A stretch of DNA of 64,000 bases from Klebsiella phage N1M2: the sequence record MN642089.1; one strand, written 5' to 3'. Position 1 is the first letter of the stretch, and every line of letters begins with the position of its first letter. This document shows, piece after piece, positions 4,573 to 57,352 of this stretch. The notes beneath the pieces were generated by a model. That model was not told the origin of the DNA. It saw only the letters and a list, made by a program, of their open reading frames with translations, and made no database searches. The position numbers and the translations under genes were made by a program.

Positions 4573-6681
4573 ATGAGCAATAAACATAACCAAATAAAAT
4601 CGAATACTGCTGGCCTAGCCATCGGTATGAACCCAAACCGTGCAACTAACTCCTCTGCACGTTTATATATGCTTGGTAAGAACCAAGGTAAAGCTGCCGT
4701 TATCTGGGGTTCTACTAACCGCAAATATTCCTCTGGTGATGAACAAGAATATGCACGAACTGCTCGTAAGGTACAAACTCTCTCTGATGTGGAAGTCGAA
4801 GAGGTTCTGTTTGTACGCGACATCATCAATGACAAAGAACCTAGTATGTGGGGAACGTACTATGTAATCGTGAAGGATCTGGAAACTGGTTTCTATGATC
4901 TCATTGAGATGCCTAAGTTCAATGCTCAAAATATGGACCTTGGGTTCGAGTATCATTATGATAATGACCTGATGCGTCAATTGACCAAAGGTGCACGATT
5001 CCGTAAAGGTACGGTATTCGCAACCAGTGCTCGTATTACTGAGTCCAATGAATGGTGTCCTGGTGTTGAGACTAAAGTAGCTGCAATGTCTCACCCATAT
5101 ACCGAAGAGGATGCGGTATTCATCTTTGAGCATTATGCCAAGAAGATCGGTGTTACATTTAAACGTGGTCTTGAGTTCCAATGGAACGAAGAAGAATATG
5201 TGATGCTGAATCTCTATGGTACTGTTGATAACCATCAAGGTTTCCCACTGTCTGGTGAGAAAGTTCGTAGTGATGGTATTGTAATGGGTTTCCGTCGTAA
5301 AGATCCCGATGCAGCAATGGCTGGTTTAACCAAAGCGGCGTTAATGAATCCGGATCCGATTTATGACCACCTGTTCTATGCATCTCCGAACTGTGTTGTT
5401 GCGGATATCAAAGTTGAGACAGAACGTTATAAGAATCTGTCCAACAACAAGCGTGCTGAAAAACGTAGTCAACCCCATACCAGACTGCTGGAGAAACTGG
5501 AAGAAGAACAAAACAGTTTTGCAAATAGTATCGTTAGCTGGTATCGTTCTAAGCAGAAACAGTATATCGATAAGAAACCACCTCTTACTCGTGAACTGTG
5601 GAACTTCATTACCTTCATGGGTGCCGGTCAGATTACTCGTGACTTCACCACTCCAACATCCAACGGTAAGTTTACTAAGATCAAACGTAAGCTGGGTAAC
5701 ATCCAGTTGAAAGATTGGCGTATCCAGATTAACCTACGTGAAGATGTAGAAGGTCAGGTCCGATTTAAGAATACCGGTATGGATGGTAACAAATCTGTTA
5801 TCATGAAGATTCTACCATCTGAATGCGCTCCGGTAGATGATCATGGTATCATGGCAGATATGGTAGTTGGTAACACTCCTGGCTATCGTCGTCAGATTTT
5901 CAACTCCTTCATGGAATTGGATATCAACTTTGTCAACATTCATCTCTATCCAGAAATCGTTAAGGCATATAAAGCTAAAGACTTCAAAAAGGCTTGGCAG
6001 ATTGCTCGTGATTTCTATGAAACGGTTTCCCCAGACCAAGGTGCAATGGCTGATCTATTCACACCAGAAGAACGAATGGCTCATCTCGACTGGATCATGA
6101 AAGATGAGAATGAGTTCTCTGCTCTAGGTAATAACACCGATGATGTACAGGGTGTTAAAATCATTGAGCGTCTGGCTGATAAGTATCCGTATATTCAACC
6201 TACACCGGTTACCTGGATTAATGAATGGGGCGAGAAGAAACGTAGTCGACATCCTATCGTGATTAGTAGTGTCTATTATATCATGTTGGATAAGTTCGGT
6301 GACGATATCTCTTGTCAGTCTACTCCGAAGCTGAATATCTTTGGGTTGCCGACATCGTTATCTAAACATGAACGTGCTCGCGATTTCTATCGTGCAACAC
6401 TTAACCGAAATGTGGGTGAAACTGAAGGACGACTTTATATTAACCAGAAAGGCGGTGCTGCTGCAGTACGAGTACTTGCACTTGCCAATAGCGCTGAATT
6501 GCTTGAAGAGGCCGTGCGCCGTTTAATCCGTGCACCTAACCCATTCACAATTGAACGCTTAGTTCTGCCTGGTGAAGAGAAGAAGAACCATTCTCTCCAG
6601 GTAATTGATAACATGCTCTCTGACTTTGGTTTAGGATTTAGGAAAGAAAATGAAAACGATAAAGCTGCGCGAGTTCGCTAA
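4573..6681 (+). CDS. multisubunit RNA polymerase beta-subunit-like protein (C-terminal catalytic module)
   Basis: Segment GMDGNKSVIMKILPSECAPVDDHGIMADMVVGNTPGYRRQIFNSFME aligns position by position with the bacterial beta active-site region [43 protein letters not shown]; 702 aa; good RBS. Confidence 0.55.
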   Translation: MSNKHNQIKSNTAGLAIGMNPNRATNSSARLYMLGKNQGKAAVIWGSTNRKYSSGDEQEYARTARKVQTLSDVEVEEVLFVRDIINDKEPSMWGTYYVIVKDLETGFYDLIEMPKFNAQNMDLGFEYHYDNDLMRQLTKGARFRKGTVFATSARITESNEWCPGVETKVAAMSHPYTEEDAVFIFEHYAKKIGVTFKRGLEFQWNEEEYVMLNLYGTVDNHQGFPLSGEKVRSDGIVMGFRRKDPDAAMAGLTKAALMNPDPIYDHLFYASPNCVVADIKVETERYKNLSNNKRAEKRSQPHTRLLEKLEEEQNSFANSIVSWYRSKQKQYIDKKPPLTRELWNFITFMGAGQITRDFTTPTSNGKFTKIKRKLGNIQLKDWRIQINLREDVEGQVRFKNTGMDGNKSVIMKILPSECAPVDDHGIMADMVVGNTPGYRRQIFNSFMELDINFVNIHLYPEIVKAYKAKDFKKAWQIARDFYETVSPDQGAMADLFTPEERMAHLDWIMKDENEFSALGNNTDDVQGVKIIERLADKYPYIQPTPVTWINEWGEKKRSRHPIVISSVYYIMLDKFGDDISCQSTPKLNIFGLPTSLSKHERARDFYRATLNRNVGETEGRLYINQKGGAAAVRVLALANSAELLEEAVRRLIRAPNPFTIERLVLPGEEKKNHSLQVIDNMLSDFGLGFRKENENDKAARVR

Positions 6682-8671
6682 TCTGTCTCTAATCTCCATG
6701 CTTCAATTTACTGAACGTCGTTTCAAGGTTGAAGTTCTGGATGATGTAGGCGAAAAGATCGTGACTGATAGTTGGATGTTAGGTCTTTCCTGGTTTAGTT
6801 TGATTGTTCATCGACACTTCAATGACGAACCTTATCATGTTGATGAATTAGCGGTACTGGTGGCTCCTAAGGGCCGCCAAGCATTTATCGATGATGATAC
6901 GCTTAAGGAACCCATTGATGCGTTCCTGGGTCGTTTGATGCCCAAGTATGATGATCCAGTGTTCTATGATTTCATCAAGCAATTGGTATTCACCTGGCAT
7001 AACCAAGTTCACAACTATATGGCTGTGATCTCTGAAACAGGTGTGGTATCTGCACGTGCGATGGACGTAGTACATTGTTATCGTCACCCTCCGGTAGCCG
7101 ATTTGAAGAAACGAGTTCGGGAAGGTAAGACTAATCTGGCAGATGCTGCTAAAGAGTTCGAAAAGATCATGATGGAAGATCCGGCTTTCGATAAGTCCGT
7201 CTTCGGTCTGTTGTATCGTACTCGTGCGGTTAACCCGACTCAGTCTTTCCAACTGGTAATTGCTCGTGGTGACGTATTCGACTTGAACAACGTAATCTTG
7301 CCGAATACCGTAATGACTTCTTATGCAGATGGCATTACAAACCTGGCTGACTCCTTAGGTGACTCCAAAGGTGCTGGCTTCTCTCTGATCAGTAATGGCT
7401 CTGCGCTACAGGACTCTGAATGGTTCCATAAAAAGATCCATAACGTGTCTCAGGTAGTGCAAGGTATTCGTTATCAATCTGATTGTGGTTCTACAACAGG
7501 TCCGGTACTGAAGATCATCTCCAGAGATTTCAAAATGTCTTTGGCTGGTCGTTATCGTATTAATGACGATGGGACTACAACTCTCTTAACTTATGATGAG
7601 TTGAAGAAGATCGAAACTGGTGACATCATCCGTATTCGTGATGTTGCCTGGTGTAAAGATTCGGGGCATGATGGTAAGCCTTGTTCTGTATGTTTCGGTA
7701 AAATGGAATCTGCACTTCCGTATAATCCATATACTAAGAAGTCTGCAGTCCCTGGTCTGTTCTATGGTTCTACCTTTGCGGAACCTATCGGTCAGTCCAT
7801 TCTGAAAACTAAACACCGTATCGGTTCCGCAACTGCAAAAGGCTTTGTGGTTCAACGTCAGGATGTTGACTATATCACTACAGATGAATCTGGAGACTTC
7901 ATCTATTTCAACAAAGGAATCCTCAACGAAGAAGCTGATCCGTATATCATCCTGGATAAAGAAACCCAGCAGGACTTCTCTGACTTCCAGTTCATGGATA
8001 ACATTGAAGATCTTGATGTGTCTCGTCTGCGTACTTATGAATCCATCAAACTTCGTGTTAACATTGTAAACCCGATGTTCGATAATCGTAAAGCAGTTCA
8101 TTATCCAATCGTGATCACTACGGTGGCTTCCCGTGATGCTCGTATGACAAAGCCGTTCATTGAGTATCTGTTAAGCAAACCAATGGAAGAAGAAGGTCGT
8201 ACATTTAAGATCAGTCTTAAAGACTTCAACTTCAAAGAACCAGCATTCGAACTACCACTGGTAAACGAAGACCTCGATGCTTATCGTAAACGTGTTGAAA
8301 CATTCCTGAAGTTCCCGAATATCAATCGTCGTTGGGATGTCAAAGTAACTCCTGAGTTGCATGGCGAAACCATGATTGCATTCTGGAAGGTAGTGGATGA
8401 GAAGTATAAAGGTGCGAATAGTATTATGCACTCTATCTTCTTGTGGGCATGTATGGCACGAGATCCTGAACATCTGGATTTTGGTATTCCAATTGGCGAC
8501 GAACCACGTAACTTCATTAGTCTGCATGATGCGGTACTGAGTCGTGGTTTGGGTAATACCTTGCTGTATGGTTGGCAGGGTAGTGCGTTGCTGGGTAGTC
8601 CGATCAACTTCTTGATCAAGAATCGACAGGGTGGGGCTCTAGAAGCATTCTGTCATCCAATCACACGTTAA
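6650..8671 (+). CDS. hypothetical protein (673 aa); possibly a further RNAP subunit fragment
   Basis: Overlaps the upstream gene by 32 nt in the +1 frame with its own RBS (AGGAAAG); Cys cluster WCKDSGHDGKPCSVC (C-x10-C-x2-C) suggests a zinc ribbon; no NADFDGD motif seen. Confidence 0.55.
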   Translation: MKTIKLREFANLSLISMLQFTERRFKVEVLDDVGEKIVTDSWMLGLSWFSLIVHRHFNDEPYHVDELAVLVAPKGRQAFIDDDTLKEPIDAFLGRLMPKYDDPVFYDFIKQLVFTWHNQVHNYMAVISETGVVSARAMDVVHCYRHPPVADLKKRVREGKTNLADAAKEFEKIMMEDPAFDKSVFGLLYRTRAVNPTQSFQLVIARGDVFDLNNVILPNTVMTSYADGITNLADSLGDSKGAGFSLISNGSALQDSEWFHKKIHNVSQVVQGIRYQSDCGSTTGPVLKIISRDFKMSLAGRYRINDDGTTTLLTYDELKKIETGDIIRIRDVAWCKDSGHDGKPCSVCFGKMESALPYNPYTKKSAVPGLFYGSTFAEPIGQSILKTKHRIGSATAKGFVVQRQDVDYITTDESGDFIYFNKGILNEEADPYIILDKETQQDFSDFQFMDNIEDLDVSRLRTYESIKLRVNIVNPMFDNRKAVHYPIVITTVASRDARMTKPFIEYLLSKPMEEEGRTFKISLKDFNFKEPAFELPLVNEDLDAYRKRVETFLKFPNINRRWDVKVTPELHGETMIAFWKVVDEKYKGANSIMHSIFLWACMARDPEHLDFGIPIGDEPRNFISLHDAVLSRGLGNTLLYGWQGSALLGSPINFLIKNRQGGALEAFCHPITR

Positions 8672-14347: not shown

Positions 14348-15412
14348 ATGACCATACTGATTTATAAAGATACAAATTTCGATATGTTCACTCCAATTCA
14401 ATCTGTATTGGGAGTAGATGATTTAAGTGAAGAAGAAAAAGTAAGAGCCAGAGAAGAACATATCAAAGAACAACTATTGAAAAACCCTCGCTATTACTGC
14501 TGGGATTATTTAAATTACTATAGAACGACTAGAGATAGTGATCTAAAAGAAGGGGAACTCTATCAACCATATATCATGGTTTCATCTAGAGGTGAGATAG
14601 CCTGGTGGATGCCAGAAGAAAATGAAGTTCATGTTACCACCGGAACTCATTCTGCTAATTACCTGATGACGCATATATATGACGATGAAAAGGAAGCATT
14701 TAAAAATATCTACATTCATCGTGCCGTTGCTTCTACCTTTATAAGTAAAAAGGAATCGCATAAAGATATACCTTACTCTAAACTTCAGGTTAACCATAAA
14801 GATGGTAATAAATTATGCCCTCATTTCGGTAATCTAGAATGGAGTACCCAATCTGAAAATAGACAACATGCAATAGACACTGGATTAGTTAAGTCTGGAA
14901 TTGATGATCCAAATACTAAACCAGTACTTGGAACAGTCGTAGTAGATAGCATGTGGAAGGGAACACAGTTTGTTATTTATGGTAGAACCGCTATAAAGAA
15001 TCTTGGTTTAGATCCAGCATCCATTCAACAGACAGTGTCAGGTAAAGCTAAAACTACATATGGATGTTCATGGTCATATATAACCAGGGAAGAAGCTGCC
15101 ACGTATACAAACACAATACCACCTCAATTACTTGATAGAATGGTTAATGATGGTGTAACTTTACTATCTACGACCAAACCAGTTATGGGGACTATAGTAA
15201 TTCCTGGAAAACACCAAGGTGATAAGTTCGTATGCTACGGTGGTAAAGAACTAACTAAGTATGGTTTCCAGCAAGCCCATGTGAGCAGGGCCACCAAAGA
15301 TCCATCAATAGTTAGAAGCGGATGTGTTTGGGAGTATGTTGATTTAAGAAAGGCAGAGACATTACCTAGAGGAATAACTGAAGAACAAAGAGTTACACTA
15401 TTTGGTAAGTAA
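14348..15412 (+). CDS. free-standing HNH homing endonuclease with duplicated C-terminal DNA-binding repeats
   Basis: HNH motif VNHKDGNKLCPHFGNLEWSTQSENRQHA; two C-terminal repeats KPVLGTVVVDSMWKGTQFVIYG... and KPVMGTIVIPGKHQGDKFVCYG...; AT-rich codon usage unlike the neighbours; bracketed by hairpin terminators. Confidence 0.75.
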   Translation: MTILIYKDTNFDMFTPIQSVLGVDDLSEEEKVRAREEHIKEQLLKNPRYYCWDYLNYYRTTRDSDLKEGELYQPYIMVSSRGEIAWWMPEENEVHVTTGTHSANYLMTHIYDDEKEAFKNIYIHRAVASTFISKKESHKDIPYSKLQVNHKDGNKLCPHFGNLEWSTQSENRQHAIDTGLVKSGIDDPNTKPVLGTVVVDSMWKGTQFVIYGRTAIKNLGLDPASIQQTVSGKAKTTYGCSWSYITREEAATYTNTIPPQLLDRMVNDGVTLLSTTKPVMGTIVIPGKHQGDKFVCYGGKELTKYGFQQAHVSRATKDPSIVRSGCVWEYVDLRKAETLPRGITEEQRVTLFGK

Positions 15413-15418
15413 ACATAA

Positions 15419-15445
15419 CCTCTACTCCCATCACGGGAGTAGAGG
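15419..15445. terminator. bidirectional terminator hairpin (perfect 11-bp stem CCTCTACTCCC/GGGAGTAGAGG)
   Basis: Lies between the convergent HNH gene and the minus-strand operon. Confidence 0.5.
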
Positions 15446-15454
15446 TCTGTTATG

Positions 15455-16762
15455 CTATCTTAAAATTTGATCCATTGTCATAGATATTGTACGTAGTTGA
15501 GAAACATGCATTGCCTTCATACGAGTTAACATGAACTGTGTAAAGATGTAAACAGCTTCAGCGGAAACACGGTTTTCAATCTTACCCAGTTTCTGACCAC
15601 AGCAAATATGGCAGAGGTTATCTTCAGGTTGAGTGCAGTATTGCGGCACACGCATTTCAACTGTCTTACCAATCAGATCGGTATCTACCTTAGACAATAT
15701 CTTAGGTTGACCACCTACCATATGGAAACCACCAATCCAACCTTTAAAGTTATGTTTATTCAACTTAACAGTTTCAGTTCTTGGTGAACCACAATCATGA
15801 CCAGCTACTCTGATACGGTTAGTTAATAGAATAGCTACCTTAACTTCCGCACCACCTTCACCAGTTGCGTTACCACGGTCGAATGATGCAGAGATTGCGG
15901 TGTTGATATATTCAGGATAGTGGTCTGGATCCCAACCTTCATCCAGTGACTTACGTAACAGGTTATATTTACCAGTGTTAAAGTCAGGAACCATATCAAA
16001 GATAATGAACATCTTCTTACGGGCGTTATCAATAAACTTACCGTTAATGAAGAAGTCTTTAGAAGGACCGGAATATTGGATCTTAGCATCCAGGGCAATT
16101 ACTTTATCAATGGCAACAGCGACAGCCGTAGGATCGTCTAGCTTGCCTTCATCCTCTAACTGCTTGAGTAGTTCATCCCTGAGTTTAATAACCTCTGGGT
16201 GGACTGTGAGGACGTCTATAGATGATGCTTTAACAAAGACCTGGTTCATACCTTCCAGATAGTCTAACTGTTTAGTAACTTTCAAACAGTCATCTACAGA
16301 AGCTTTACCTTCAGGAACTTCTTGACCTGGTTCTGGGTTATCAACCATTAGACCATCGATGATCCCTTGAATGGTACCGCCAGCAATCTTACCATTAAAG
16401 TAATTGGTACGGTTCTGGAATGATTCAAAGAGAACAACGATATTGGTTAAAAAGATCCCTACAGTTGTTTCCATCTTTTCAGTGATGAAATCATGGGATT
16501 CAACGTCAACCGTAATCTTTTCATTCTTATTGAAAAGTGGCAGTGAATAATCGCCGCCTTCGATTGTAACCCTCTGACGGTTTTCATCAAGGAAGTATAT
16601 AGTTTTAGTTTCGTCATCTCGTATAGCAGCATATGGAACATCCTCCAACATCTTCCGGTTAGCCGGATTGTCGTGAACCAAACTAAAGATTGACATTAAA
16701 AACGATTTACGAATGTAAGCTCGTTTCTTGAAGGTGAGAAAGAGATAATCTAACTTATGCAT
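15455..16762 (-). CDS. hypothetical protein with a C-terminal Cys cluster (435 aa); translationally coupled to the upstream gene
   Basis: ATG at 16762 overlaps the stop of 16755..17636 (ATGCATAA junction); C-terminal CTQPEDNLCHICCGQ zinc-ribbon-like cluster. Confidence 0.65.
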   Translation of the reverse strand: MHKLDYLFLTFKKRAYIRKSFLMSIFSLVHDNPANRKMLEDVPYAAIRDDETKTIYFLDENRQRVTIEGGDYSLPLFNKNEKITVDVESHDFITEKMETTVGIFLTNIVVLFESFQNRTNYFNGKIAGGTIQGIIDGLMVDNPEPGQEVPEGKASVDDCLKVTKQLDYLEGMNQVFVKASSIDVLTVHPEVIKLRDELLKQLEDEGKLDDPTAVAVAIDKVIALDAKIQYSGPSKDFFINGKFIDNARKKMFIIFDMVPDFNTGKYNLLRKSLDEGWDPDHYPEYINTAISASFDRGNATGEGGAEVKVAILLTNRIRVAGHDCGSPRTETVKLNKHNFKGWIGGFHMVGGQPKILSKVDTDLIGKTVEMRVPQYCTQPEDNLCHICCGQKLGKIENRVSAEAVYIFTQFMLTRMKAMHVSQLRTISMTMDQILR

Positions 16763-17636
16763 TAAGTTTAACCTTATTCAAAATACTAGTTCCTTTATAA
16801 GCTTCTTCAATGGAATTACAATGTTCTTCCACCAAAGCTGTAAATTGGCCAACAATATCTGTATCGGTCATATAGGAGATTAGCATGAGGCTTAGTACAT
16901 TGGTCAGATAAACTGTGTTATCTTCATCAACTAAAGCTTTAGCCAGTTGGTTGGTGAACAGTTTATGATAACCATCGAAATCTTGACCAACACCGCCGCC
17001 ATTGACGATATGCTCTCCAGCAACAGTTCCTTTTAGGAATTCGCCATTGGCTTTGATTCGTTTTTGTAACCATGGATCTACCCAGGTCTCGTCATCTTGA
17101 TCGATCACATTAATACCGATCATGATACCACGAATAACGTTGGTAGAAACATCCTTGATGTAGTATTCCATGTTCTCCATATCAAACTGTGGTTGAACCA
17201 TTCTTACTACACGAATGAATCTTTCTTTAGGATCAGCTTGGTCATCATTAAGAGTATCATACAGACCAATAAGATCAGTCATACCGTCTACCATAAAAAT
17301 GGTATCCAATACTACGATTAATTCAGGTAATGAGTTTGGATCAATCCAGTCTTTATCAATGATGATTCCCATTATCTGCAAGGCATCAATGATTGTGTCG
17401 ATAAACAACATTCTCATATGTGCCATCATATCTGCAGTACCCAGCGCTTCATCCACTAGGATGTGGGTAATCGTATTGTCGATAAAGCTATCAGGAAAAC
17501 TGATTGCAATTAAATTATACGCCTGGTTGTATTGTGTAGCGTGTTCAGGTGTGCAGCGAGCAATAAAGTCCTGCCACATCTCACCAAGGTTTTCCACACC
17601 TAAATCTACGTTGGTAAGATCGATCATTTCTGACAT
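16755..17636 (-). CDS. hypothetical protein (294 aa from the ATG at 17636; ORF-track start 17651 is GTG); contains a GQDFDGY motif
   Basis: Minus-strand ORF; AGGT RBS before the ATG at 17636; first gene of a two-gene - strand operon ending at the 15419..15445 hairpin. Confidence 0.6.
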   Translation of the reverse strand: MSEMIDLTNVDLGVENLGEMWQDFIARCTPEHATQYNQAYNLIAISFPDSFIDNTITHILVDEALGTADMMAHMRMLFIDTIIDALQIMGIIIDKDWIDPNSLPELIVVLDTIFMVDGMTDLIGLYDTLNDDQADPKERFIRVVRMVQPQFDMENMEYYIKDVSTNVIRGIMIGINVIDQDDETWVDPWLQKRIKANGEFLKGTVAGEHIVNGGGVGQDFDGYHKLFTNQLAKALVDEDNTVYLTNVLSLMLISYMTDTDIVGQFTALVEEHCNSIEEAYKGTSILNKVKLNA

Positions 17637-17673
17637 AGGTTTACCTATCACTTATATTAAAAGGGTTCATAAC

Positions 17674-21999: not shown

Positions 22000-22539
22000 A
22001 TGTTACTCAATCAAGAAAATATCACCACCCTGGCTCAGAAACTGTTCGATGCTATCAAAGGTGCTGAACCAAAAGCAACTTCCATTGAAGTTGATAATCT
22101 GGCACTCATCAAAATCATTGATACCGAATGTGACCACGGGATGGGTACCGATGTATTCGGCGTCTACGTTAATGGTAAACGTCAGGGCGTGATACGTCTT
22201 CCATCGGAACTGGGAACAGCCGACCCTGTTCGCGCCACACTATCTCGCCTTATTGGTGAAACGATCAAGAGCAAAGTGGAAGCTATTACTTCCCACATCC
22301 TCTGTGGTGAAGAAGGTATGCCGAACCCAACCTATGTGACTCGCACTCTTAGCATCATTAAGAAGTGTGAAACCACGCAGGGTATCATGGTATACCAGAT
22401 TATCGTTAATGGTGAAATGGTTGCTAACATTCCTCATGAAGGTAAGATCACCGAACATGACTGGATCTACATCACCGTTCGTGGTATTATCCACAACGCA
22501 GCAATGGATGGCGATTATCATCTGACCGTACTCGAATAA
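22000..22539 (+). CDS. hypothetical protein (179 aa)
   Basis: ORF; last gene of the + block before the bidirectional terminator at 22550..22578 and a T9 run. Confidence 0.55.
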   Translation: MLLNQENITTLAQKLFDAIKGAEPKATSIEVDNLALIKIIDTECDHGMGTDVFGVYVNGKRQGVIRLPSELGTADPVRATLSRLIGETIKSKVEAITSHILCGEEGMPNPTYVTRTLSIIKKCETTQGIMVYQIIVNGEMVANIPHEGKITEHDWIYITVRGIIHNAAMDGDYHLTVLE

Positions 22540-22549
22540 CAAACATAAC

Positions 22550-22578
22550 CCCTACCCCTCCTTTCGGAGTGGGTAGGG
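22550..22578. terminator. bidirectional terminator (CCCTACCCCTCC ... GGAGTGGGTAGGG)
   Basis: Lies between convergent genes; a T9 run at ~22592..22600. Confidence 0.55.
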
Positions 22579-22600: not shown

Positions 22601-24340
22601 TTATGCTGCTTTCTTAGCTTCATTAATGAATGGGATTACAGACTCTTCATAGAAAGAGTTAATCTCAGTCAGTTGAGGCATACCGTAAATGGTATTACAC
22701 AAAGTCACCGCATTAGCAATTGGGGACGAAGCGTAGTTAACACCGACACGACGGAACTCGAAACGATCCAGACCTTCAATTTCACATACTTCCAACTTAG
22801 TTGTTTTGTTGGATACGTTAAGTGAAACTGTAATGTGAGGATATGCGCCCGTTACGTCGATATCATCCGTGTCGCCACGACCACGTGAACGCCATGAAGG
22901 AAGACCAGCATAGATTGGTTTACCTTTATCTTCATTAAGCTCAGCATGGAGCAGAGCGATCCAGTCACGAAGATCTGGCTTGATATCTTTCCAAATATCT
23001 TCTTTCTTACGGCCAACTGTTCCCCAAACATAACCATGTTCCAAAGCAATGAAAGATAACTTATCAGAAATCATTGATGGTTGTGATTGGTATGAACGAA
23101 GTTCAGAAGAAGTAATCAGAGAAGGCAATGACAGAGAGTAGTCATTAGTTACTCGGTTAAGATCTTCAATTACCCAGTTATCTCGAATGTTATACATTGC
23201 GTAGATATAAGGGAATTTCTTCTGCATGAATTTGTGCCATTCGGTAGAACCAGCTTGCAAGTGATCTGCTTCAGGAGTATATAACTTACCTTCTACCCCT
23301 TCAGCTTTAGCCGTGTTCTGTAACGAGTAAGATTCCTTCTTACCACCTGGAGCACGTTTAATCGCATAGAAAGACATCCCATCAAACCACTGCCACTTAG
23401 CAGGTGCCTGAAGAACAGGGAAACGTTCTTGAGGTTCTAGTGGCGATTTGGAACCATCAACCTTAGTTTTAAACTCACGACCTTTAAAATAGAAATAATC
23501 GCGATAAGGTTTAGGAACTTCTGGATCACTATATACGTCGGCTAAATCATAACCTTCATTAGTTAATGAATCTTCATTAGCTTGCATATCAAAGTTTGCG
23601 TTCCAGCTAACGACATAGTCTGGACCGATACGGTGAAATGCTTGAATGTTGTTATAAACAACTTGACCTGGAGTATCATAAAGTTCAAATACAATTTTGA
23701 CCTTATGTTTTTCCATGTACTCTTTCAAGTGTACTTCAGCTGCTTCATTCAGTTTACGCAGAATAGTCGCATCATCTTCCCCAGGGAAGAAGCTACGTAG
23801 GCCAGCCCAATATACTGTATCTCCACAGGTAATGGAAGCCATGTTGACACAACCGGTTGAACCATCATTATTGATATACGTTTCAACGTCGTATGCTGCT
23901 ACTTTATAAGCTTCCTGTGGTTGGTAATCAGGATACTTTTTATAGAAGCGTTCTTTAAAGATAACCGGAACACTTTCCTGACAACCAAATACATAAGGGC
24001 TGTTCTTTAATTCGCCCAGTTGAGCTTTACGATCTGGACGACCATAAAGACATTTACTAATTTGAACTGCCAAACGTGATTCATTAGAGCTATGCTTATC
24101 GCATTTAGCGATTTCAATGTAATCTCGTTTATCCTGGAATGTTTGATATTTCTTTTTGACGATATAGAAGTCTCGTTTAAAGTTTTCAATCTTAACTAAT
24201 CGATCTTCACGAGTACCGTCTTTACGAATGTTGGTTATCTTGGCAGTAAGTAAATCGTTACCGTCCATAAATTTGTTGAACGATAAGTATGCATGTTTAC
24301 AAACACGCCCAACAATTGGATTGTCAGTTTGATCTGTCAT
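22601..24340 (-). CDS. family-B DNA polymerase N-terminal + 3'-5' exonuclease module, ending just after polymerase motif A (split/partial PolB)
   Basis: Exo I AAYDVETY (D-x-E), Exo II SWNANFDMQ (N-x3-FD), Exo III YAMYNIRD (Y-x3-D), then DVTGAYPHI ~ motif A D-x-x-S-L-Y-P-S-I about 80 aa before the stop; motifs B (K-x3-NS-x-YG) and C (YGDTDS) absent. Confidence 0.65.
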   Translation of the reverse strand: MTDQTDNPIVGRVCKHAYLSFNKFMDGNDLLTAKITNIRKDGTREDRLVKIENFKRDFYIVKKKYQTFQDKRDYIEIAKCDKHSSNESRLAVQISKCLYGRPDRKAQLGELKNSPYVFGCQESVPVIFKERFYKKYPDYQPQEAYKVAAYDVETYINNDGSTGCVNMASITCGDTVYWAGLRSFFPGEDDATILRKLNEAAEVHLKEYMEKHKVKIVFELYDTPGQVVYNNIQAFHRIGPDYVVSWNANFDMQANEDSLTNEGYDLADVYSDPEVPKPYRDYFYFKGREFKTKVDGSKSPLEPQERFPVLQAPAKWQWFDGMSFYAIKRAPGGKKESYSLQNTAKAEGVEGKLYTPEADHLQAGSTEWHKFMQKKFPYIYAMYNIRDNWVIEDLNRVTNDYSLSLPSLITSSELRSYQSQPSMISDKLSFIALEHGYVWGTVGRKKEDIWKDIKPDLRDWIALLHAELNEDKGKPIYAGLPSWRSRGRGDTDDIDVTGAYPHITVSLNVSNKTTKLEVCEIEGLDRFEFRRVGVNYASSPIANAVTLCNTIYGMPQLTEINSFYEESVIPFINEAKKAA

Positions 24341-37373: not shown

Positions 37374-38597
37374 ATGTCTCTTAAGAACGTTTTCGCTTCT
37401 ATCGCTGGTCAAGAATCTGCAGATCTGGATCCGGCACTGGCTGGTATCGTTGAAGTAACCGCTGAAGAAGCAGCAGAAGCAGTGATCGATAAAGAAATCG
37501 CTGAAACTGAAAAATGCATCGCTGAACACGATCACGAAATCGAAAAGCATGAAGATGCTATCGAAGCGATCGAAGAAAAAGTTGAAGAACTGGAAGAAGT
37601 AATCGAAGGCATGGAATCTCAGATGTCTGGTTCTACTCCGTTCAACGCTGGCCTGTTCGCCCACCAGTACGCTCAGGGTGCTAAGATCGTTGCTAAGATG
37701 GGTGCTCCGGTTGAACTGCACGGCGCTGAAAGCTATGCAGACGCTTCTACCGCTAACCTGAACGCTCTGGCTGGTGTTGAGTCCATGAAAGAAACTGCTG
37801 TTAAAGCTGCTGCAGCTGCGAAGAAATTCTTCGTTGAACTGTACAACGGCTTCATCGCAGTTGTTACTGGTCTGTTCAACCGCTTCAAAGGCATCGAGAA
37901 GAAAGCTGCTAACCTGAAAGCTCAGGTTGCTGGTAAAGATGCAGACGCTATCAAAGGCGAAGTTACCCGTACCGGTTCTATGCGTTTCGTTGATGCTAAC
38001 GGTCATGCGCCGAAAGTTGTTGATGCTATCGTTGAAGCTGGTAACACCCTGGCTGCAACCATGGACACCATCAACGCAGGTGGCGTAGTTGACGGTATCG
38101 ATCGTGTTATCGATAAACTGGCTAAGATGGGTACCAAGAAAGTAAACGGCGACGTCGTTGAAATCCACATCAATGGTGGTGTAGTAGCTATCCACGCTCC
38201 TAAAGATGACGCTGATCTGCCTAAAGTTTCTCTGTCTGTTAAAGGCAGCGGTGAAGCTGCTAAAGGTCAGAAACTGGGTAAACCAGCTCTGGAAGCTCTG
38301 TGCAACGAAGTTGCTAAAGACGCTAAGAAACTGCAGATCGCTAAATTCGACAGCCGTGCTCTGACTGCTTCCCGCGACAAAGCTATCGCTCAGATGGAAA
38401 AACGTGGCGCAGAGAAAGACGAAGATCGTAAGAACGTCAAATCTGGCGTTGCTGCAATCAAGAACGGCCATCGTGCTGGTATGAAACTGATCCGTGGCGC
38501 ATTCGGCCTGGCAGGTGACGTACTGGACGGTCAGCTGGCGTTCGTTAAAGCTCACCTGGGTGGTGCCGCTAAGAAAGAAGAAGAAAAAGCTGAGTAA
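37374..38597 (+). CDS. highly expressed Ala-rich protein with an acidic coiled-coil N-terminus (407 aa); abundant structural or scaffold-type protein
   Basis: Extreme codon bias (gct/ggt/ctg/gaa/aaa/cgt); N-terminal EEAAEAVIDKEIAETEKCIAEHDHEIEKHEDAIEAIEEKVEELEEVIEGME; the antisense 395-aa ORF has Ser/Phe/Cys-rich nonsense composition; UUCG-loop terminator follows. Confidence 0.7.
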   Translation: MSLKNVFASIAGQESADLDPALAGIVEVTAEEAAEAVIDKEIAETEKCIAEHDHEIEKHEDAIEAIEEKVEELEEVIEGMESQMSGSTPFNAGLFAHQYAQGAKIVAKMGAPVELHGAESYADASTANLNALAGVESMKETAVKAAAAAKKFFVELYNGFIAVVTGLFNRFKGIEKKAANLKAQVAGKDADAIKGEVTRTGSMRFVDANGHAPKVVDAIVEAGNTLAATMDTINAGGVVDGIDRVIDKLAKMGTKKVNGDVVEIHINGGVVAIHAPKDDADLPKVSLSVKGSGEAAKGQKLGKPALEALCNEVAKDAKKLQIAKFDSRALTASRDKAIAQMEKRGAEKDEDRKNVKSGVAAIKNGHRAGMKLIRGAFGLAGDVLDGQLAFVKAHLGGAAKKEEEKAE

Positions 38598-47557: not shown

Positions 47558-49096
47558 TTAGATGTCGTCAAAGTCTGAGCCACCGCCCATTGCTTCACTT
47601 CTGTGTGCTAATGATTTACGATAAATCTTTTTATCAAAGTTAATATCATGAACAAGACCATTAACAGGGTCTAATGGATAGATACCGAAACGACTACTTT
47701 CTTGAGCACCTTCACCACGCATCTTACCAACGTAATAAGTAAACCAACATTCGTTGTTTTGAAGTTTAGCTACATGCAGACCGATTACACAGTCGACTTC
47801 GTTAGTAAGTTTAGTACAACCTTCAGTCATTGACTTACCGCCAACATCACGGATGAAGTAAATCTCTGAATCATCATCTTGTTCACGGATGAATTTCTTA
47901 GCATCCGGGTTAAGCTGGTGAGGAGTAAGGAAAGCTGCACCACGAGAGGTAAAGAAGTTACGAGCACGGTTATACAGGTTCTGTAGTTTATCAGAACGTG
48001 ATTCACCTTGACAGCCAGTTAAGTCTGCCATTGCCAGATAGTCATATGCACCAACAATGATTTCATGACCTTTCAGTTCTAATGTGCGAACACGTTGCAT
48101 GATCTCATGGATATTATCGTGAGATGGGTTAACGCGATAGAATTTGAAAGACCAACCATTCTCATCAAAGGTATCGATAATTGTAGATACAACTTCATCT
48201 GTAGTTGCTTCGAAGAAGTTAGGCTTAGTACCAGTCTTAGCAGTAACGAACAATTCGTACATACGTTTAAAGATCAGACCTAAGCTATCCTCAGCAGACA
48301 TTAATACAACAGTTGGAATCTTGGACTTATTACGAAGAACCGGTTTGTTGTATAACGGAACAGATGCGATGAGGTGTGCAAGACCAAATGACTTACCGCG
48401 GTTAGTCAGTGCTTCGATCATGTACATCAAGCCACGACGTAGACCGCAGTCAGGATATAAAGCTTCGTTAAGACCAGCTAAGCCAGTTTTGATAATACCT
48501 TCTGGAGAAGTCTCAACTTTAAGTTGATCAATAACTGTCTTGATGCCATCAGGGTTATCAGAACCAGTAGCTTCAACAACAGCCTTATCGAATGTATTAT
48601 CATTCAGGTCAGCAATCTTTTCATTAATCAGTTCGTTGATCTTCATCCAATCATCTTTGGAGAGATCATCTTCACCTTCAAACAAGAATGGACGAACCAT
48701 ACTTTTGAATTGGAACGCGAACTTGTTACTTGTTGCTACATCACGCAGCTCTTTAATAATTTGGAAGATTAGCTGTCGCGAGTCTTCATTACCCAAATCT
48801 GATTTAAAAGCGTCTGTGAGTAGTTTCTCAAGTTCAGGAGAAAGGAGAATAATCTCAGTTAACTTAGGGGTCAACAGTGATGTTATGATATTAGAGTCAT
48901 TCGGTTGCTCTCTAAACCACCCCAGTAATTTGCGGAGCAGAGCTTCTGTTTTCTTGTCTTGTTGAACTAGACTTTCTTTACTCTTAGGAACGTCCTCAGA
49001 TAACAAAAGGATTTCATCCATTAAATCTTTGTCATCTAAACGCCAAGCTTGGAACATTGCTTGTGCAAGTTTGACGAGACGAATCAGGTTGTTCAT
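47558..49096 (-). CDS. DnaB-family replicative DNA helicase (T4 gp41-like)
   Basis: Walker A ALTNRGKS (A-x4-GKS) in a GLAGLNEALYPDCGLRRGLMYMIEA context typical of DnaB; Walker B-like IIVGAYDYLAMADL; H4-like HQLNP (cf. SQLNR); ~200-aa N-terminal domain. Confidence 0.6.
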   Translation of the reverse strand: MNNLIRLVKLAQAMFQAWRLDDKDLMDEILLLSEDVPKSKESLVQQDKKTEALLRKLLGWFREQPNDSNIITSLLTPKLTEIILLSPELEKLLTDAFKSDLGNEDSRQLIFQIIKELRDVATSNKFAFQFKSMVRPFLFEGEDDLSKDDWMKINELINEKIADLNDNTFDKAVVEATGSDNPDGIKTVIDQLKVETSPEGIIKTGLAGLNEALYPDCGLRRGLMYMIEALTNRGKSFGLAHLIASVPLYNKPVLRNKSKIPTVVLMSAEDSLGLIFKRMYELFVTAKTGTKPNFFEATTDEVVSTIIDTFDENGWSFKFYRVNPSHDNIHEIMQRVRTLELKGHEIIVGAYDYLAMADLTGCQGESRSDKLQNLYNRARNFFTSRGAAFLTPHQLNPDAKKFIREQDDDSEIYFIRDVGGKSMTEGCTKLTNEVDCVIGLHVAKLQNNECWFTYYVGKMRGEGAQESSRFGIYPLDPVNGLVHDINFDKKIYRKSLAHRSEAMGGGSDFDDI

Positions 49097-53242: not shown

Positions 53243-54937
53243 ATGGATCCACAATTTCTGAAGAAAGTGAGAAAGCAACGCGGAGGCTTTACTCAAGCTT
53301 TAGTTGATGGGTGGCATAAAAAGGACATGGACAGGATTGTTCCACACCTGACCAAGTGCTTTGAAAATATGTTCAGGTCTCTACAGGAAAAGGGCTATTA
53401 TTTCGATGGGATTGAGGAAGTGTGTCCTCTTGAGTTCTATAACTCGATCACTCGTTCTAGTAGTAGTGGGACCAAGGATTTTGAAATCGCCAAGAACAGT
53501 TTCTTTGGAGTTCGTATCAAGAACCATTTCAAAGATCCTGTAACTGGTATTGAATCAGAATTAAAATGCCCTCTGATGTTCTTACCTTATACCAATATCT
53601 ACGGTGACATCTATACACGTAACTCCACATATTCCATGCAATATGTGTTGTCTGAACGTGGTCCTTCTGTTGATGGTGGTCGTGACAAAACCATTTTCAT
53701 CAGGGTGTTGGGTTATAAGTTTAAAGTAACTAAAGAGATCCACACATTTAACCGTGTATTCCGCAGTGGAAACAAAGTTAATACTGGTGCGATCAATATG
53801 ACGCTTCCAGCTAACCGTTTCTATAACTCCAAAAATGATCGCAAGATCACCAGTAAGAAAGTTCCAATTCCATTACTGGCCTGGTACGTGTTTGGTAAAT
53901 ATGGATTCACACACTGCATGAAACAATTTGCAGAATGTGATTACATGATCGACACCTTAGACACTCTGCTCGATATTTGTCCAGAGTCTGATGGTTGGCA
54001 GATCTATTCCAACACAGGTTGCATTCATCCAAAAGCATTCGATCGCCCTAAAGGCGCTCCGCTGTTAGATGAACCAGCAATTGCGATTAAGAGCATTAAC
54101 AAAGGTGGTGAAATCTCCAACCTTGCACTGCAATATACCGCAGGGCTGTTGTTCATGTTTGGTGTCTTCAGTCACGAATTAGATATTCGTCGTCTGGATG
54201 ATATTAACTATTGGCGTCTGATCATTGGCAGGTGTTCTATTCGCCTACCAGCTAAAACTCTACCTGATGTTTATCTGCGTCAGATGAACGAGCACTTCAG
54301 CTCTGTAGAGGAATATGCTGATGACATCACCATCGACAAGTATAATAAGTTTGACATTGAAGTTCGTGACACTTATGAGTTACTGAACTATCTCATGATG
54401 AACTATTCTAACTTGATCAAACTGTATGACCCTGCGAACATGCTTCATAAAGAAGTAGCCTCTATGGAATTCATCGTCGACTTCCTGATTCACCAGGCGA
54501 ACGACTTTAAGTTCATGATTCGTAATAAAAGTAATATCACGCCGAAGATTATCAACCGAGAACTAGACGCTCACTTCCGTCTGTTTAATGCTGATAAATC
54601 CGTACGCGAAAATAACACCATACTCGAACAGACTGGTACCGATAATCCATTCATCGACTATGGACTGGGAATTATCCTTCAAACCAAATCCACCGTTAAC
54701 CGCGGTCCTGGTAAGAAGAAGGAAGAATTTGATCCCAACCATCCCGGTAGTATCATCCACGCATCTCAGCCTTTTGTTGTGTCTTATCAGTTCTCTACTA
54801 AACCTAACCCAGATGCTCGTGGTTTCTTCCAACCGCGTGTTCACTTGGATCAGGATAAGTATACTGGTTTAAGACCTGAAGACAGGGCGTTGTATGAAGC
54901 TACTGAACACAGACTTAAGTTTAGAGAAGGTAAATAA
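53243..54937 (+). CDS. hypothetical protein (564 aa)
   Basis: ORF with an AGGAG RBS. Confidence 0.6.
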   Translation: MDPQFLKKVRKQRGGFTQALVDGWHKKDMDRIVPHLTKCFENMFRSLQEKGYYFDGIEEVCPLEFYNSITRSSSSGTKDFEIAKNSFFGVRIKNHFKDPVTGIESELKCPLMFLPYTNIYGDIYTRNSTYSMQYVLSERGPSVDGGRDKTIFIRVLGYKFKVTKEIHTFNRVFRSGNKVNTGAINMTLPANRFYNSKNDRKITSKKVPIPLLAWYVFGKYGFTHCMKQFAECDYMIDTLDTLLDICPESDGWQIYSNTGCIHPKAFDRPKGAPLLDEPAIAIKSINKGGEISNLALQYTAGLLFMFGVFSHELDIRRLDDINYWRLIIGRCSIRLPAKTLPDVYLRQMNEHFSSVEEYADDITIDKYNKFDIEVRDTYELLNYLMMNYSNLIKLYDPANMLHKEVASMEFIVDFLIHQANDFKFMIRNKSNITPKIINRELDAHFRLFNADKSVRENNTILEQTGTDNPFIDYGLGIILQTKSTVNRGPGKKKEEFDPNHPGSIIHASQPFVVSYQFSTKPNPDARGFFQPRVHLDQDKYTGLRPEDRALYEATEHRLKFREGK

Positions 54938-54940
54938 GAA

Positions 54941-57352
54941 ATGACTATGAACAATGGCCCACAAGTATTAACTGGTCGTAACCCTCAGACTCAAACCCTG
55001 ATGGGTAATCAACAAAATGGTAACCTGGGTGGGCAGCCCCAGCAACCACAAATACAGCAAAACAATAACCCACTTGCTCAGCTGGCAGGTTTCTCTGCTA
55101 AGATCGCAGGTCAGGTTAATAACCCTAATAGTCAGACAAGTTTGTATTCCACTGTAACTTCCCGTAACAACTATGCACATCTGTTGTGTCTGGAAGATAA
55201 CGCAGCCGAAGAACAAATGAAAGCGCAAGCATTGGCAGATGCTGGCAACCTGGCTACTAACATCTTTAATATCTGTGCACGTCGTATTGTTCAGAACCCG
55301 TTCTATCGTGTTCACTGTGCGGCTAAGGAACGTTTCAAGTCCCCACGTAAAAATCTTCCACCTGATCAAACTCTGAGTGCGTTTATCGACGAGATCGATA
55401 GTAACCAGATTCTGTATCAATTCATCCTGGCAAACGTCTCCATTATGTTCACCGCAGAATTTGCAAACGCAATCATGCGTGGTGATGAGCGTGTGCGTAC
55501 CGATCGTGCTGTTGTAGATGATATGTATTATCGTTGTACTATCGATGCAATCTACATGCAGTATTTCGATTTCCTGGCGCAGCATCCAGATGGTTCCCAG
55601 ATTTATTATAACGCAGCTCCAGTTGTTAAGGAAGTGTTGAATGATCTTGAACCAAAACTGTATGACATGGTCCTGAGCAAGTTTACTTTTGTAAACGTTC
55701 AATGTCCATGGCGTAAAGGTCGTCTGGGTGAATTGCAACAGCGCTCTACTCAGTCTAATCCATTGTTGGATAATTCCAATATCATGGATATGGGTTTTGC
55801 TGGGACTTATTATGATCCTAACTATAATCCAAACATGGCTGGACTGGCAGGTCAGACTAATGATGCTGGTCTGCGGGAGCTTCAGGAATATGTCCGTCAG
55901 AAAGCTGCAGGTTATACTCCTAAGCCACAACAGCCGACAGAGGAAAACCGTATCCTGCAAACTACTTATGGCGGGTATGATCAGCCAGAACTGAAACTGG
56001 AAGATATGACTCGTGAGAACCGCCTGCGTTATTCGCTGGATAAATGGGGTTCTCAGATTCCTGGTACTGAGTGGTGGGTGATGCGTGAGAAGGACGTGGT
56101 TCACTTTGCTCGTGTTATGGATATGGATGATGGCATTCCATTCCGTGTTCGTGATACACGTTGTGTAGGAACTGTTCCTGTATATCGTTTCAACTGGCAG
56201 AACGGTACATTTAACTTCCGTCTTGTTAAACATAAACTACAGGCATTTGATATCATGGGAACTTTGATCAGTAATCCTGATAAACTGTTACCGTACATGT
56301 ATGAAGAAGATGGTGTTCAGAAAACTACTTTCGATCCAACCATTCTGGAAACTAGCAAGTTCGTAAATGAAGGACATGTTATCCCAGTTGGTGAAATGAA
56401 AGAGCTGGAGAAAGAACCTGATATTCTGATCGGCAACAAACCGATGAAAGCTAATCAGGGAAATGAACACATCCTGAATCGCATGGACGTTATTACTCAA
56501 ACTTATGATCCAAAGAACAAACTGGACGCATTTGTAATGCCGATGGTTATTACTCGTGAATGGCAGATGGATTCCCATGTTAATATGGATCGTTTCTATT
56601 CCCAGTTCCGTGTAATGGTTCAAGGTAATACTGCTGGTATGGATGATACCATCCAGGTACTGCGCAGCATTCGTGCAGCATATAACGAATGTGAAGACCA
56701 AGAATTTAAAGATTTCATTAAACCATATATCACCAACCTGGTTAACCGTTATCTGATCGAAGTTCGTGGTTATGCAGAAACCAAACAAGAATCTATCGAT
56801 TCTGGTGTGATCTGTTATCTGAAGTCTTCCGACATCTTTGAAGATCTGGAAGATTGGATTGAATGTCTGAAAAACGACGACCTTCCTACTCTGCGTGCTT
56901 TTGCTGACTATCGTTTCAATACTTTCATGCGCATGGGTATTGAAGTTCTGTGTGGACCAGAACAAGTAAAAGAAGAGTATCAAGAAAAATATGGTAAAGA
57001 CGATGATGAGATCTTTGTGGCTGCAATGCTGAAGTCTGCAGAGAAAGCAGTAATCATCAAACGTAACACCGTGTTCTTCAATCTCCGTAAACAACCAGCC
57101 CCACATACCGTAGAAGCAATTACCATTAAAGAGTCAGTAAACCCAGAACTGTTTGCAATTATCCGTGAAGCTACTCGTATCACAGCGAAACACTTCAAAG
57201 ATACTCCGCAAATCCTGGTACGCTTTGAAACCGATTCCGGTAACAAAGTCTTTACTGTAACTCCAAGTGGTTTCGATCCAGAATCCGTAGTGACCTTACG
57301 CCCTGTTGATGCAGGACAAACGTATTGCCACCCATATCCGATTGTGGACTAA
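54941..57352 (+). CDS. hypothetical protein with a Gln/Asn-rich N-terminal region (803 aa)
   Basis: Long ORF; the antisense ORFs 54968..56233 and 56288..57106 have Ile/Phe/Cys-rich nonsense composition. Confidence 0.65.
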   Translation: MTMNNGPQVLTGRNPQTQTLMGNQQNGNLGGQPQQPQIQQNNNPLAQLAGFSAKIAGQVNNPNSQTSLYSTVTSRNNYAHLLCLEDNAAEEQMKAQALADAGNLATNIFNICARRIVQNPFYRVHCAAKERFKSPRKNLPPDQTLSAFIDEIDSNQILYQFILANVSIMFTAEFANAIMRGDERVRTDRAVVDDMYYRCTIDAIYMQYFDFLAQHPDGSQIYYNAAPVVKEVLNDLEPKLYDMVLSKFTFVNVQCPWRKGRLGELQQRSTQSNPLLDNSNIMDMGFAGTYYDPNYNPNMAGLAGQTNDAGLRELQEYVRQKAAGYTPKPQQPTEENRILQTTYGGYDQPELKLEDMTRENRLRYSLDKWGSQIPGTEWWVMREKDVVHFARVMDMDDGIPFRVRDTRCVGTVPVYRFNWQNGTFNFRLVKHKLQAFDIMGTLISNPDKLLPYMYEEDGVQKTTFDPTILETSKFVNEGHVIPVGEMKELEKEPDILIGNKPMKANQGNEHILNRMDVITQTYDPKNKLDAFVMPMVITREWQMDSHVNMDRFYSQFRVMVQGNTAGMDDTIQVLRSIRAAYNECEDQEFKDFIKPYITNLVNRYLIEVRGYAETKQESIDSGVICYLKSSDIFEDLEDWIECLKNDDLPTLRAFADYRFNTFMRMGIEVLCGPEQVKEEYQEKYGKDDDEIFVAAMLKSAEKAVIIKRNTVFFNLRKQPAPHTVEAITIKESVNPELFAIIREATRITAKHFKDTPQILVRFETDSGNKVFTVTPSGFDPESVVTLRPVDAGQTYCHPYPIVD

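Follow-up and report, generated by a model that had tools for sequence, protein, structure and literature searches.

The split DNA polymerase of phiKZ-like phages has reportedly been present in the literature since 2008-2012, in work that is said to be that of Thomas in 2008 and of Cornelissen in 2012. Ten years separate the phiKZ genome from the identification of its 'split subunit DNA polymerase' (Thomas et al. 2016, PMC5105663, citing Cornelissen 2012). Both aspartates of the active site (in phage EL, D229 and D398) were put on the polymerase chain by Kazlauskas & Venclovas 2011 (PMC3201878), and the exonuclease was described as a stand-alone protein by Iyer et al. 2021 (PMC7824862). No paper placing motif A on the exonuclease chain was found in an incomplete literature search. 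Natural and engineered split family-B DNA polymerases (PolBs) are active, an engineered split Pfu polymerase being fully active (PMC3061061). The natural splits lie at the fingertip in the T4-like phages 133, 44RR, 31, 25 and 65, in the palm after the fingers in Methanothermobacter, and at the boundary of the N-terminal and palm domains in RM378 (PMC3061061). Inteins are known in phage polB genes (PMC6892783).

The locus analysed here belongs to a 64-kb stretch of the genome of Klebsiella phage N1M2, hereafter the window. Its minus-strand ORF 22601..24340 was confirmed to encode 579 amino acids followed by a stop codon. It is a complete gene and very probably encodes, in intact form, the N-terminal of the two subunits that make up the replicative PolB of a Chimalliviridae (phiKZ-like, Petsuvirus/OBP-like) jumbo phage. 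In the PHROGs, it matches phrog_3011, 'DNA polymerase' (E 1.1e-202), residues 4-569 being aligned with positions 4-569 of a profile of 576. Its closest relative among phage records (tblastn) is SUREIYA_02450, 'DNA-directed DNA polymerase', of Serratia phage vB_SmaM-Sureiya (genus Petsuvirus, family Chimalliviridae), with 96% amino acid identity; the feature is therefore already known, as the orthologue of a described and annotated gene. DNA identity to Sureiya over the region is only ~83%, so that the two phages probably represent different species of the same group. The order of the genes around the ORF is shared with its Chimalliviridae orthologues, with virion-protein and RNA-polymerase genes as neighbours.

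Homologues of the ORF were found by tblastn in 291 phage records (283 covering at least 80% of the query), all of them jumbo phages, whose hosts are Pseudomonas, Erwinia, Salmonella, Vibrio, Serratia, Aeromonas and similar bacteria. When 1.84 billion proteins (representatives of clusters at 50% identity) were searched with a profile, 983 relatives were obtained at E <= 1e-3. Among the best 150 of these 983 representatives, the median length is 572 amino acids and the protein continues for a median of 70 residues past the YP of motif A, vs 78 in the N1M2 protein. The reading made from the sequence only had called this PolB truncated, a description that does not hold, ~575 amino acids being the normal and conserved length of the family. 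No fused full-length polB was found among the best 150 of 983 representatives; the 894-residue relative P0244, considered as a fused form, was rejected, its extra length being an acidic, low-complexity tail only.

The protein family is too divergent for the Pfam models PF03104 and PF00136. A Pfam search of the ORF protein at E <= 1 returned neither of them and nothing except a chance match to YOMG_N, and only chance matches came from sequence searches of Pfam and the PDB, whether the query was the single protein or a 62-sequence profile; one relative (P0050) carries a precomputed PF03104 match. PHROGs, fold comparison and profile-profile alignment were used because of this divergence. The annotations of the homologues in phage records include 'ribonuclease', 'nucleic acid binding protein' and 'hypothetical', labels that under-describe the protein.

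The N-terminal and 3'-5' exonuclease domain (residues 1-440, minus strand, 23021..24340) was delimited from an AlphaFold2 model built with 62 homologues (mean pLDDT 84.3) and from Foldseek comparisons. Up to about residue 410, the pLDDT means of 10-residue blocks stay mostly within 88-98 (lowest 73); for residues 411-440 they are 77-84. Of the best 50 Foldseek matches in the PDB, 49 are RB69 gp43 and one (rank 39) is the T4 holoenzyme; the best match has E 5.5e-14, probability 1.00, ~446 aligned columns and ~14% identity. The fold is that of the N-terminal and exonuclease domains of RB69/T4 gp43. The three exonuclease motifs, all on the minus strand, show the expected carboxylate patterns (DxE, Nx2-3FD and Yx3D, respectively): Exo I, YDVETY, residues 150-155 (23876..23893), with D151 and E153; Exo II, WNANFDM, residues 246-252 (23585..23605), with N247 and D251, paired with WN..FD in both T4 gp43 and phiR1-37 g170; Exo III, YAMYNIRD, residues 380-387 (23180..23203), with Y383 and D387, aligned to the YISYNIID of T4 gp43. 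In the alignment of the 62 homologues (A1; 45-85% identity), D151, E153, N247, D251, Y383 and D387 are invariant, as are D493, D495, Y500 and P501 in the motif A region. On these alignments the proofreading site looks intact. A stand-alone DnaQ-like 3'-5' exonuclease was rejected as a description of the protein, because its N-terminal domain is that of a PolB and motif A, together with its helix, is conserved.

Palm motif A is found downstream of the exonuclease domain. DIDVTGAYPHI occupies residues 493-503 (window 22832-22864), and DVTGAYPH (residues 495-502) fits the motif A pattern DxxSLYPS. The motif and the helix that follows it, DIDVTGAYPHITVSLNVSNKTT, extend over 22799..22864 on the minus strand; according to profile-profile alignment (hhalign) and conservation, D495 would correspond to T4 D408 and Y500 to the steric-gate tyrosine. 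The alignment of A1 with T4 gp43, of moderate strength (E 2.7e-4, probability 41%), pairs DVTGAYPHI...NVSNKTT with DLTSLYPSI...NISPETI, SRGRGDTDDIDVTGAYPHITVSLNVSNKTTK being the family segment that is paired with the motif A region of gp43. It also pairs GKPIYAGL (22901..22924, minus strand), the strand preceding motif A, in which G473 is invariant, with PGAFVFEP of T4. The alignment of A1 with phiR1-37 g170 is stronger (probability 96.8%, E 2.6e-10) and puts the motif on DLSSMYPSII: the segment of g170 aligned to motif A and its helix (22799..22864) is DEDLSSMYPSIILAYGIDNETL, and its canonical motif matched to that of the ORF is DEDLSSMYPSII. In turn, g170 matches T4 gp43 by BLASTP (E 3e-12) over an alignment that spans motif A.

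D-x4-YP stands in the expected place in 145 of the best 150 of the 983 representatives, the five others being truncated sequences or matches that end before the motif. In columns that the search pattern leaves unfixed, D-2 is kept in 144/145, N+13 in 140/145 and T+18 in 136/145; the motif of SPN3US gp44 is DADLTQAYPS. Given this frequency and the ten invariant residues, the exonuclease and palm motifs are not chance matches. All four had been pointed out in the sequence-only reading; they stand where it had placed them and are conserved in homologues. Judged from the profile alignments to T4 gp43 and phiR1-37 g170 and from conservation throughout the family, motif A is genuine and is located on the chain encoded by 22601..24340, and D495 would have a catalytic role. 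The pLDDT of motif A is below 50 in the single-chain model; low values near the motif could be mere model weakness.

The remaining polymerase motifs are not encoded after motif A, the protein ending 78 residues past its YP, as had been proposed, nor do they lie elsewhere in the window. A six-frame regular-expression scan found K-x3-NS-x-YG, DTDS and KKRY in none of the long ORFs of the 64 kb; motif B (Kx3NSxYG), motif C (DTDS) and KxY do not occur together on the ORF's own polypeptide. The polymerase half of SPN3US (gp18) has no tblastn match in the window, and no second polB half came to light when 20 further long ORFs of the window were compared with PHROGs and Pfam. The minus-strand ORFs at 15455..17651, considered as polB pieces, were rejected; one product is an RNA polymerase subunit (phrog_2962), the other a protein of unknown function (phrog_5038). 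The only other 'polymerase' match in the window, 53243..54937 (phrog_2943), was also rejected, with no PolB motifs and no Pfam match; its product is tentatively taken for an RNA-polymerase subunit. The absence of the missing half from the neighbourhood of the gene, already suspected, was borne out by these assignments and by the position of the partner gene in Sureiya, 33.7 kb from the N-terminal half across the origin of the record.

In relatives, the second half is encoded by a separate gene, the ORF that the sequence-only reading had advised searching for. SPN3US gp18 (759 residues) carries KTLNNGMSG, VVSDTDST and KAKHY. Its homologue in Sureiya, SUREIYA_00150 (14817..16895, 692 residues, annotated 'DNA polymerase'), carries KIFNNAQSGAM, LTSDTDSS and SKHYY and matches PF20286 (divDNApol), 'Divergent Family B DNA polymerase' (E 6e-263). 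The partner aligns by hhalign with phiR1-37 g167 (probability 97%), its motifs falling on the canonical KILANSYYGAFG and on LLSDTDST. Along the partner are found the fingers with motif B (109-160), a helical insert (176-362), motif C (386-390) and KxY (463-465). Two long helices of the fingers, the helical insert (~190 residues) and a thumb can be recognised in its AlphaFold2 model (pLDDT 83.8), whose best PDB matches, weak ones (E 1e-4), are RB69/T4 gp43. In the single-chain models of both halves, few segments have pLDDT below 50, among them motif A and the motif B loop of the partner (160-166), and most of the rest is confident; block means in the motif C stretch of the partner (381-400) are 55-63.

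The two halves co-occur. The PF20286 partner is present in 300 phage records vs 291 for the N-terminal half, and the counts are identical in 7 of the 8 best-represented host genera (N-terminal half/partner: Pseudomonas 81/81, Erwinia 62/62, Vibrio 23/23, Serratia 21/21, Aeromonas 20/20, Klebsiella 14/14, Ralstonia 13/13), Salmonella being the one that differs (24 vs 29). The partner is present in Sureiya, SPN3US, pAEv1810, AhC3_1, Moabite and RTH11. In the Chimalliviridae genomes examined, the two genes are never adjacent and lie 27-49 kb apart (27.4 kb in SPN3US, 34.5 kb in AhC3_1, 35.4 kb in pAEv1810 and 48.5 kb in Moabite, besides the Sureiya pair). Positions 10-2978 of the window align to positions 2976-2 of Sureiya, in reverse orientation; if N1M2 is collinear with Sureiya, its partner gene would be predicted outside the window, ~12-14 kb past the left end (position 1). 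Of the two possibilities that had been left side by side, a split polB and an exonuclease-only derivative, the former is retained, on account of the partner gene and of the genuine motif A, and the latter is not.

On the partner, neither the alignment nor the model shows a motif A upstream of motif B. The only invariant acidic residue upstream of partner motif B is D71, which lies in a hairpin turn in KNKxGDRExKV and is not followed by an aromatic residue. The published view is that of a stand-alone proofreading exonuclease acting beside a catalytically complete polymerase chain, motif A of the exonuclease protein being a relic or a structural element. It has in its favour the assignment of both catalytic aspartates to the polymerase chain (PMC3201878), the description of the exonuclease as a separate protein (PMC7824862) and the fact that the exonuclease part is the sole confidently modelled part of the chain. 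However, D229 of the EL-like polymerase lies in QLQFADRDLIQSVI, ~60 residues past motif B (KIFNNSQSG, 160-168); being downstream of motif B, it is out of order for a motif A and breaks the A-B-C order. Its equivalent in the partner model lies between two helices and not at the end of a strand, and is just 'nearly invariant' in the alignment. A relic, moreover, would not keep the D, the Y, the P and the N-x-S-x-x-T tail in ~145 representatives, and the chain of alignments through T4 and phiR1-37 puts motif A on the N-terminal half. The published view is accordingly considered unlikely.

The break can be placed roughly by alignment to PolBs, as had been suggested: it would lie within the first segment of the palm, between the motif A helix and the fingers, at about T4 residues 428-450, the upper bound (~450) being taken from a non-significant alignment. 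The profile of the partner matches T4 gp43 weakly (E 0.019), and that of its N-terminal 175 residues alone does not match significantly (E 0.52); with such scores, the correspondence of YHFSPSMVAY of the partner with YSCSPNGWMY of T4 is suggestive only. Extra residues are found on both sides of the break, ~65 helical ones after the motif A helix of the N-terminal half and ~90 before the pre-finger hairpin of the partner. The former make up a family-specific C-terminal helical extension (residues 515-579, minus strand, 22604..22798), for which the AlphaFold2 model shows helices at 526-538, 544-552 and 557-578 (block pLDDT 62-86). It has no counterpart in T4 gp43, in which ~24 residues separate NISPETI from YSCSPNG, and it may serve as a surface for docking of the partner.

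Such extra sequence at the break and the known occurrence of inteins in phage polB genes (PMC6892783) speak for another reading, in which the halves are spliced together in trans after translation through a split intein, as they are in Nanoarchaeum PolB and phage MIJ3. This is very improbable, since no invariant Cys or Ser follows motif A (the distant member P0279 has Gly in place of the Cys of EVCEIEG), no intein family is found among the Pfam matches of the N-terminal half or of the partner, and the conserved sequence of the partner starts within ~6 residues in the clade (S-P-F), too early for a C-intein with terminal HN and a nucleophile to fit in front of it. More generally, neither a homing endonuclease nor an intein was found at the break in this phage, whereas an insertion of this kind had been proposed as a source of the break.

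The stop codon is followed by a gap of 61 nt and then by the 3' end of a convergent plus-strand gene (22000..22539). The gap contains a strong stem-loop, CCCTACCCACTCC-GAAA-GGAGGGGTAGGG (22550..22578, not assigned to a strand), which is a probable two-way terminator; the minimum free energy of the gap is -28.2 kcal/mol for minus-strand RNA and -24.2 kcal/mol for the plus strand. The stem-loop was not reported by a simple consensus terminator scan, and a consensus scan for sigma-70 promoters and terminators around the gene performed no better than on shuffled sequence. The hairpin gap and the convergent gene leave no room for a frameshifted continuation; neither such a frameshift nor a full-length polB elsewhere, either of which would have spoken against a split gene, was found. 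A truncated or frameshifted polB, whether as a pseudogene, through a sequencing error or after recent mobile-element disruption, is scarcely conceivable: although the ORF stops 78 residues past motif A without motif B or C and an HNH endonuclease gene lies 7 kb off (14348..15412), the same length and end point recur in 291 phage records and among the best 150 of 983 representatives, the stop is followed by the hairpin and the convergent gene with no polB in another frame, and motif B or C occurs nowhere in the 64-kb window.

We therefore return to a polymerase made of two chains. The N-terminal subunit would provide the N-terminal domain, the complete 3'-5' proofreading site and the first part of the palm, i.e. 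the strand before motif A and motif A itself, with the putative metal-binding aspartate D495 and the putative steric-gate tyrosine Y500. The fingers with motif B, the large helical insert, motif C (SDTDS), KxY and the thumb would come from the PF20286 partner, encoded ~34 kb off. Association of the two chains would most likely be non-covalent, the palm sheet and the two-metal site being formed by both, and the extensions flanking the break (~65 residues on this chain, ~90 on the partner) would probably form the docking surface; these extensions are possibly the leftover of an old mobile-element insertion. Alignment, conservation and the single-chain models suggest that both polypeptides probably contribute to the active site of the palm. 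The low pLDDT at motif A and in the motif C stretch of the partner fits a palm sheet that is completed only in the complex. Taken as a whole, a replicase whose catalytic centre is built in trans, the 'exonuclease' chain contributing the aspartate and steric-gate tyrosine of motif A and the extensions acting as docking modules, is on balance the probable arrangement.

If this is true, the assignment of motif A to EL D229 made in 2011 has to be corrected, the PF20286 chain expressed alone is expected to be an inactive enzyme, and mutation of the 'exonuclease' gene is expected to cause a loss of DNA synthesis that goes beyond proofreading. The gene itself is an ordinary one: it is among the core replication genes of a phage family that has been well studied, and it is annotated as DNA polymerase in its nearest relative. 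The sole new point, a modest one, is the presence of a catalytic polymerase motif on the so-called exonuclease half.

Compared with the split PolBs of Chimalliviridae (SUREIYA_02450/00150, SPN3US gp44/gp18, OBP, EL), the ORF is an orthologue with the same motifs and the same end point. It shows no difference in kind from them; the placement of motif A proposed here departs from the published domain assignment. T4/RB69 gp43, which gives the best structural matches for both halves, has in common with the ORF protein the fold of the N-terminal and exonuclease domains, Exo I-III, and motif A followed by an N-x-S-x-E-T helix; it is a single chain of 898 residues, whereas the protein is split here and the partner has a helical insert of ~190 residues between the fingers and motif C. 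In phiR1-37, g170 (576 residues) is a homologue that likewise ends ~60 residues past its canonical motif A, and g167 carries motifs B and C with the same helical insert as the PF20286 partner. Unlike in the Chimalliviridae genomes examined, these pieces lie within 4 kb of each other, and g170 is immediately followed by a gene with the annotation 'homing endonuclease'. A further cut, at the position of MKNE, divides the second piece of phiR1-37, the thumb being on a third piece; g169 was rejected as this thumb piece, and the third piece was not found. Other natural split PolBs, like the pair described here, are encoded by two genes and form a non-covalent complex. The break differs from theirs in lying after motif A and before the fingers, and is a fourth natural split point tolerated by a family-B DNA polymerase.

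The N-terminal, exonuclease-bearing subunit of the split family-B DNA polymerase is inconsistently annotated in GenBank. Depending on the phage record, its homologues are labelled 'DNA polymerase', 'hypothetical protein', 'nucleic acid binding protein', 'ribonuclease H-like superfamily protein' or 'ribonuclease'.

Yersinia phage phiR1-37 has its polB divided into three or more pieces (L004, the record of this phage, NC_016163.1, 305-6704). g170, the homologue of the N-terminal subunit, ends about 60 aa past motif A; the very next gene is g171, annotated 'homing endonuclease' (Pfam matches: Mom family, REase_MTES_1575 domain, zinc finger). Motifs B and C are carried by g167, on the strand opposite to g170. 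g167 ends exactly at the MKNE position of the Chimalliviridae partner chain, ahead of KxY and the thumb. The thumb-bearing piece of phiR1-37 polB was not found; g169 was considered for this role and rejected (hhalign E 0.3).

The phiKZ-like phages are not known to have a sliding clamp. The partner chain of Serratia phage Sureiya (L003, the record of this phage, 14817-16895, minus strand) has the C-terminal end ITRLVSDEH, which matches 'TRLISDFY', a C-terminal motif proposed as possibly clamp-binding (Kazlauskas & Venclovas 2011, PMC3201878). The window also encodes a divergent DnaB-like replicative helicase (47558-49096, minus strand; phrog_3213, E 4e-157), which is the helicase described as co-diverging with this split polymerase (Iyer et al. 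2021, PMC7824862).

Long antisense ORFs are found at three places in the window. An ORF of 489 aa without stop codons (50423-51892, minus strand) lies inside the major head protein gene (49802-51979, plus strand), which belongs to the part of the window with the highest G+C content (0.49, compared with about 0.41). Similar ORFs of 395 aa and 421 aa are found inside 37374..38597 and 54941..57352, respectively. These ORFs probably reflect an effect of codon usage.

A free-standing homing-endonuclease-like gene adjoins a split-polymerase gene: the ORF at 14348-15412 (plus strand, 354 aa), counterpart of a 'putative HNH endonuclease' of Sureiya, is tail-to-tail with an RNA polymerase subunit gene (15455-16762, minus strand; phrog_2962). 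Pieces of multisubunit RNA polymerases are spread over several separate genes of the window, including this phrog_2962 gene, two overlapping genes at 4573-8671 (plus strand; both annotated RNA polymerase beta in Sureiya) and a putative piece at 53243-54937 (plus strand; phrog_2943). These separate genes correspond to the fragmented RNA polymerase architecture that is a known trait of Chimalliviridae, and this fragmentation parallels the split of the DNA polymerase.
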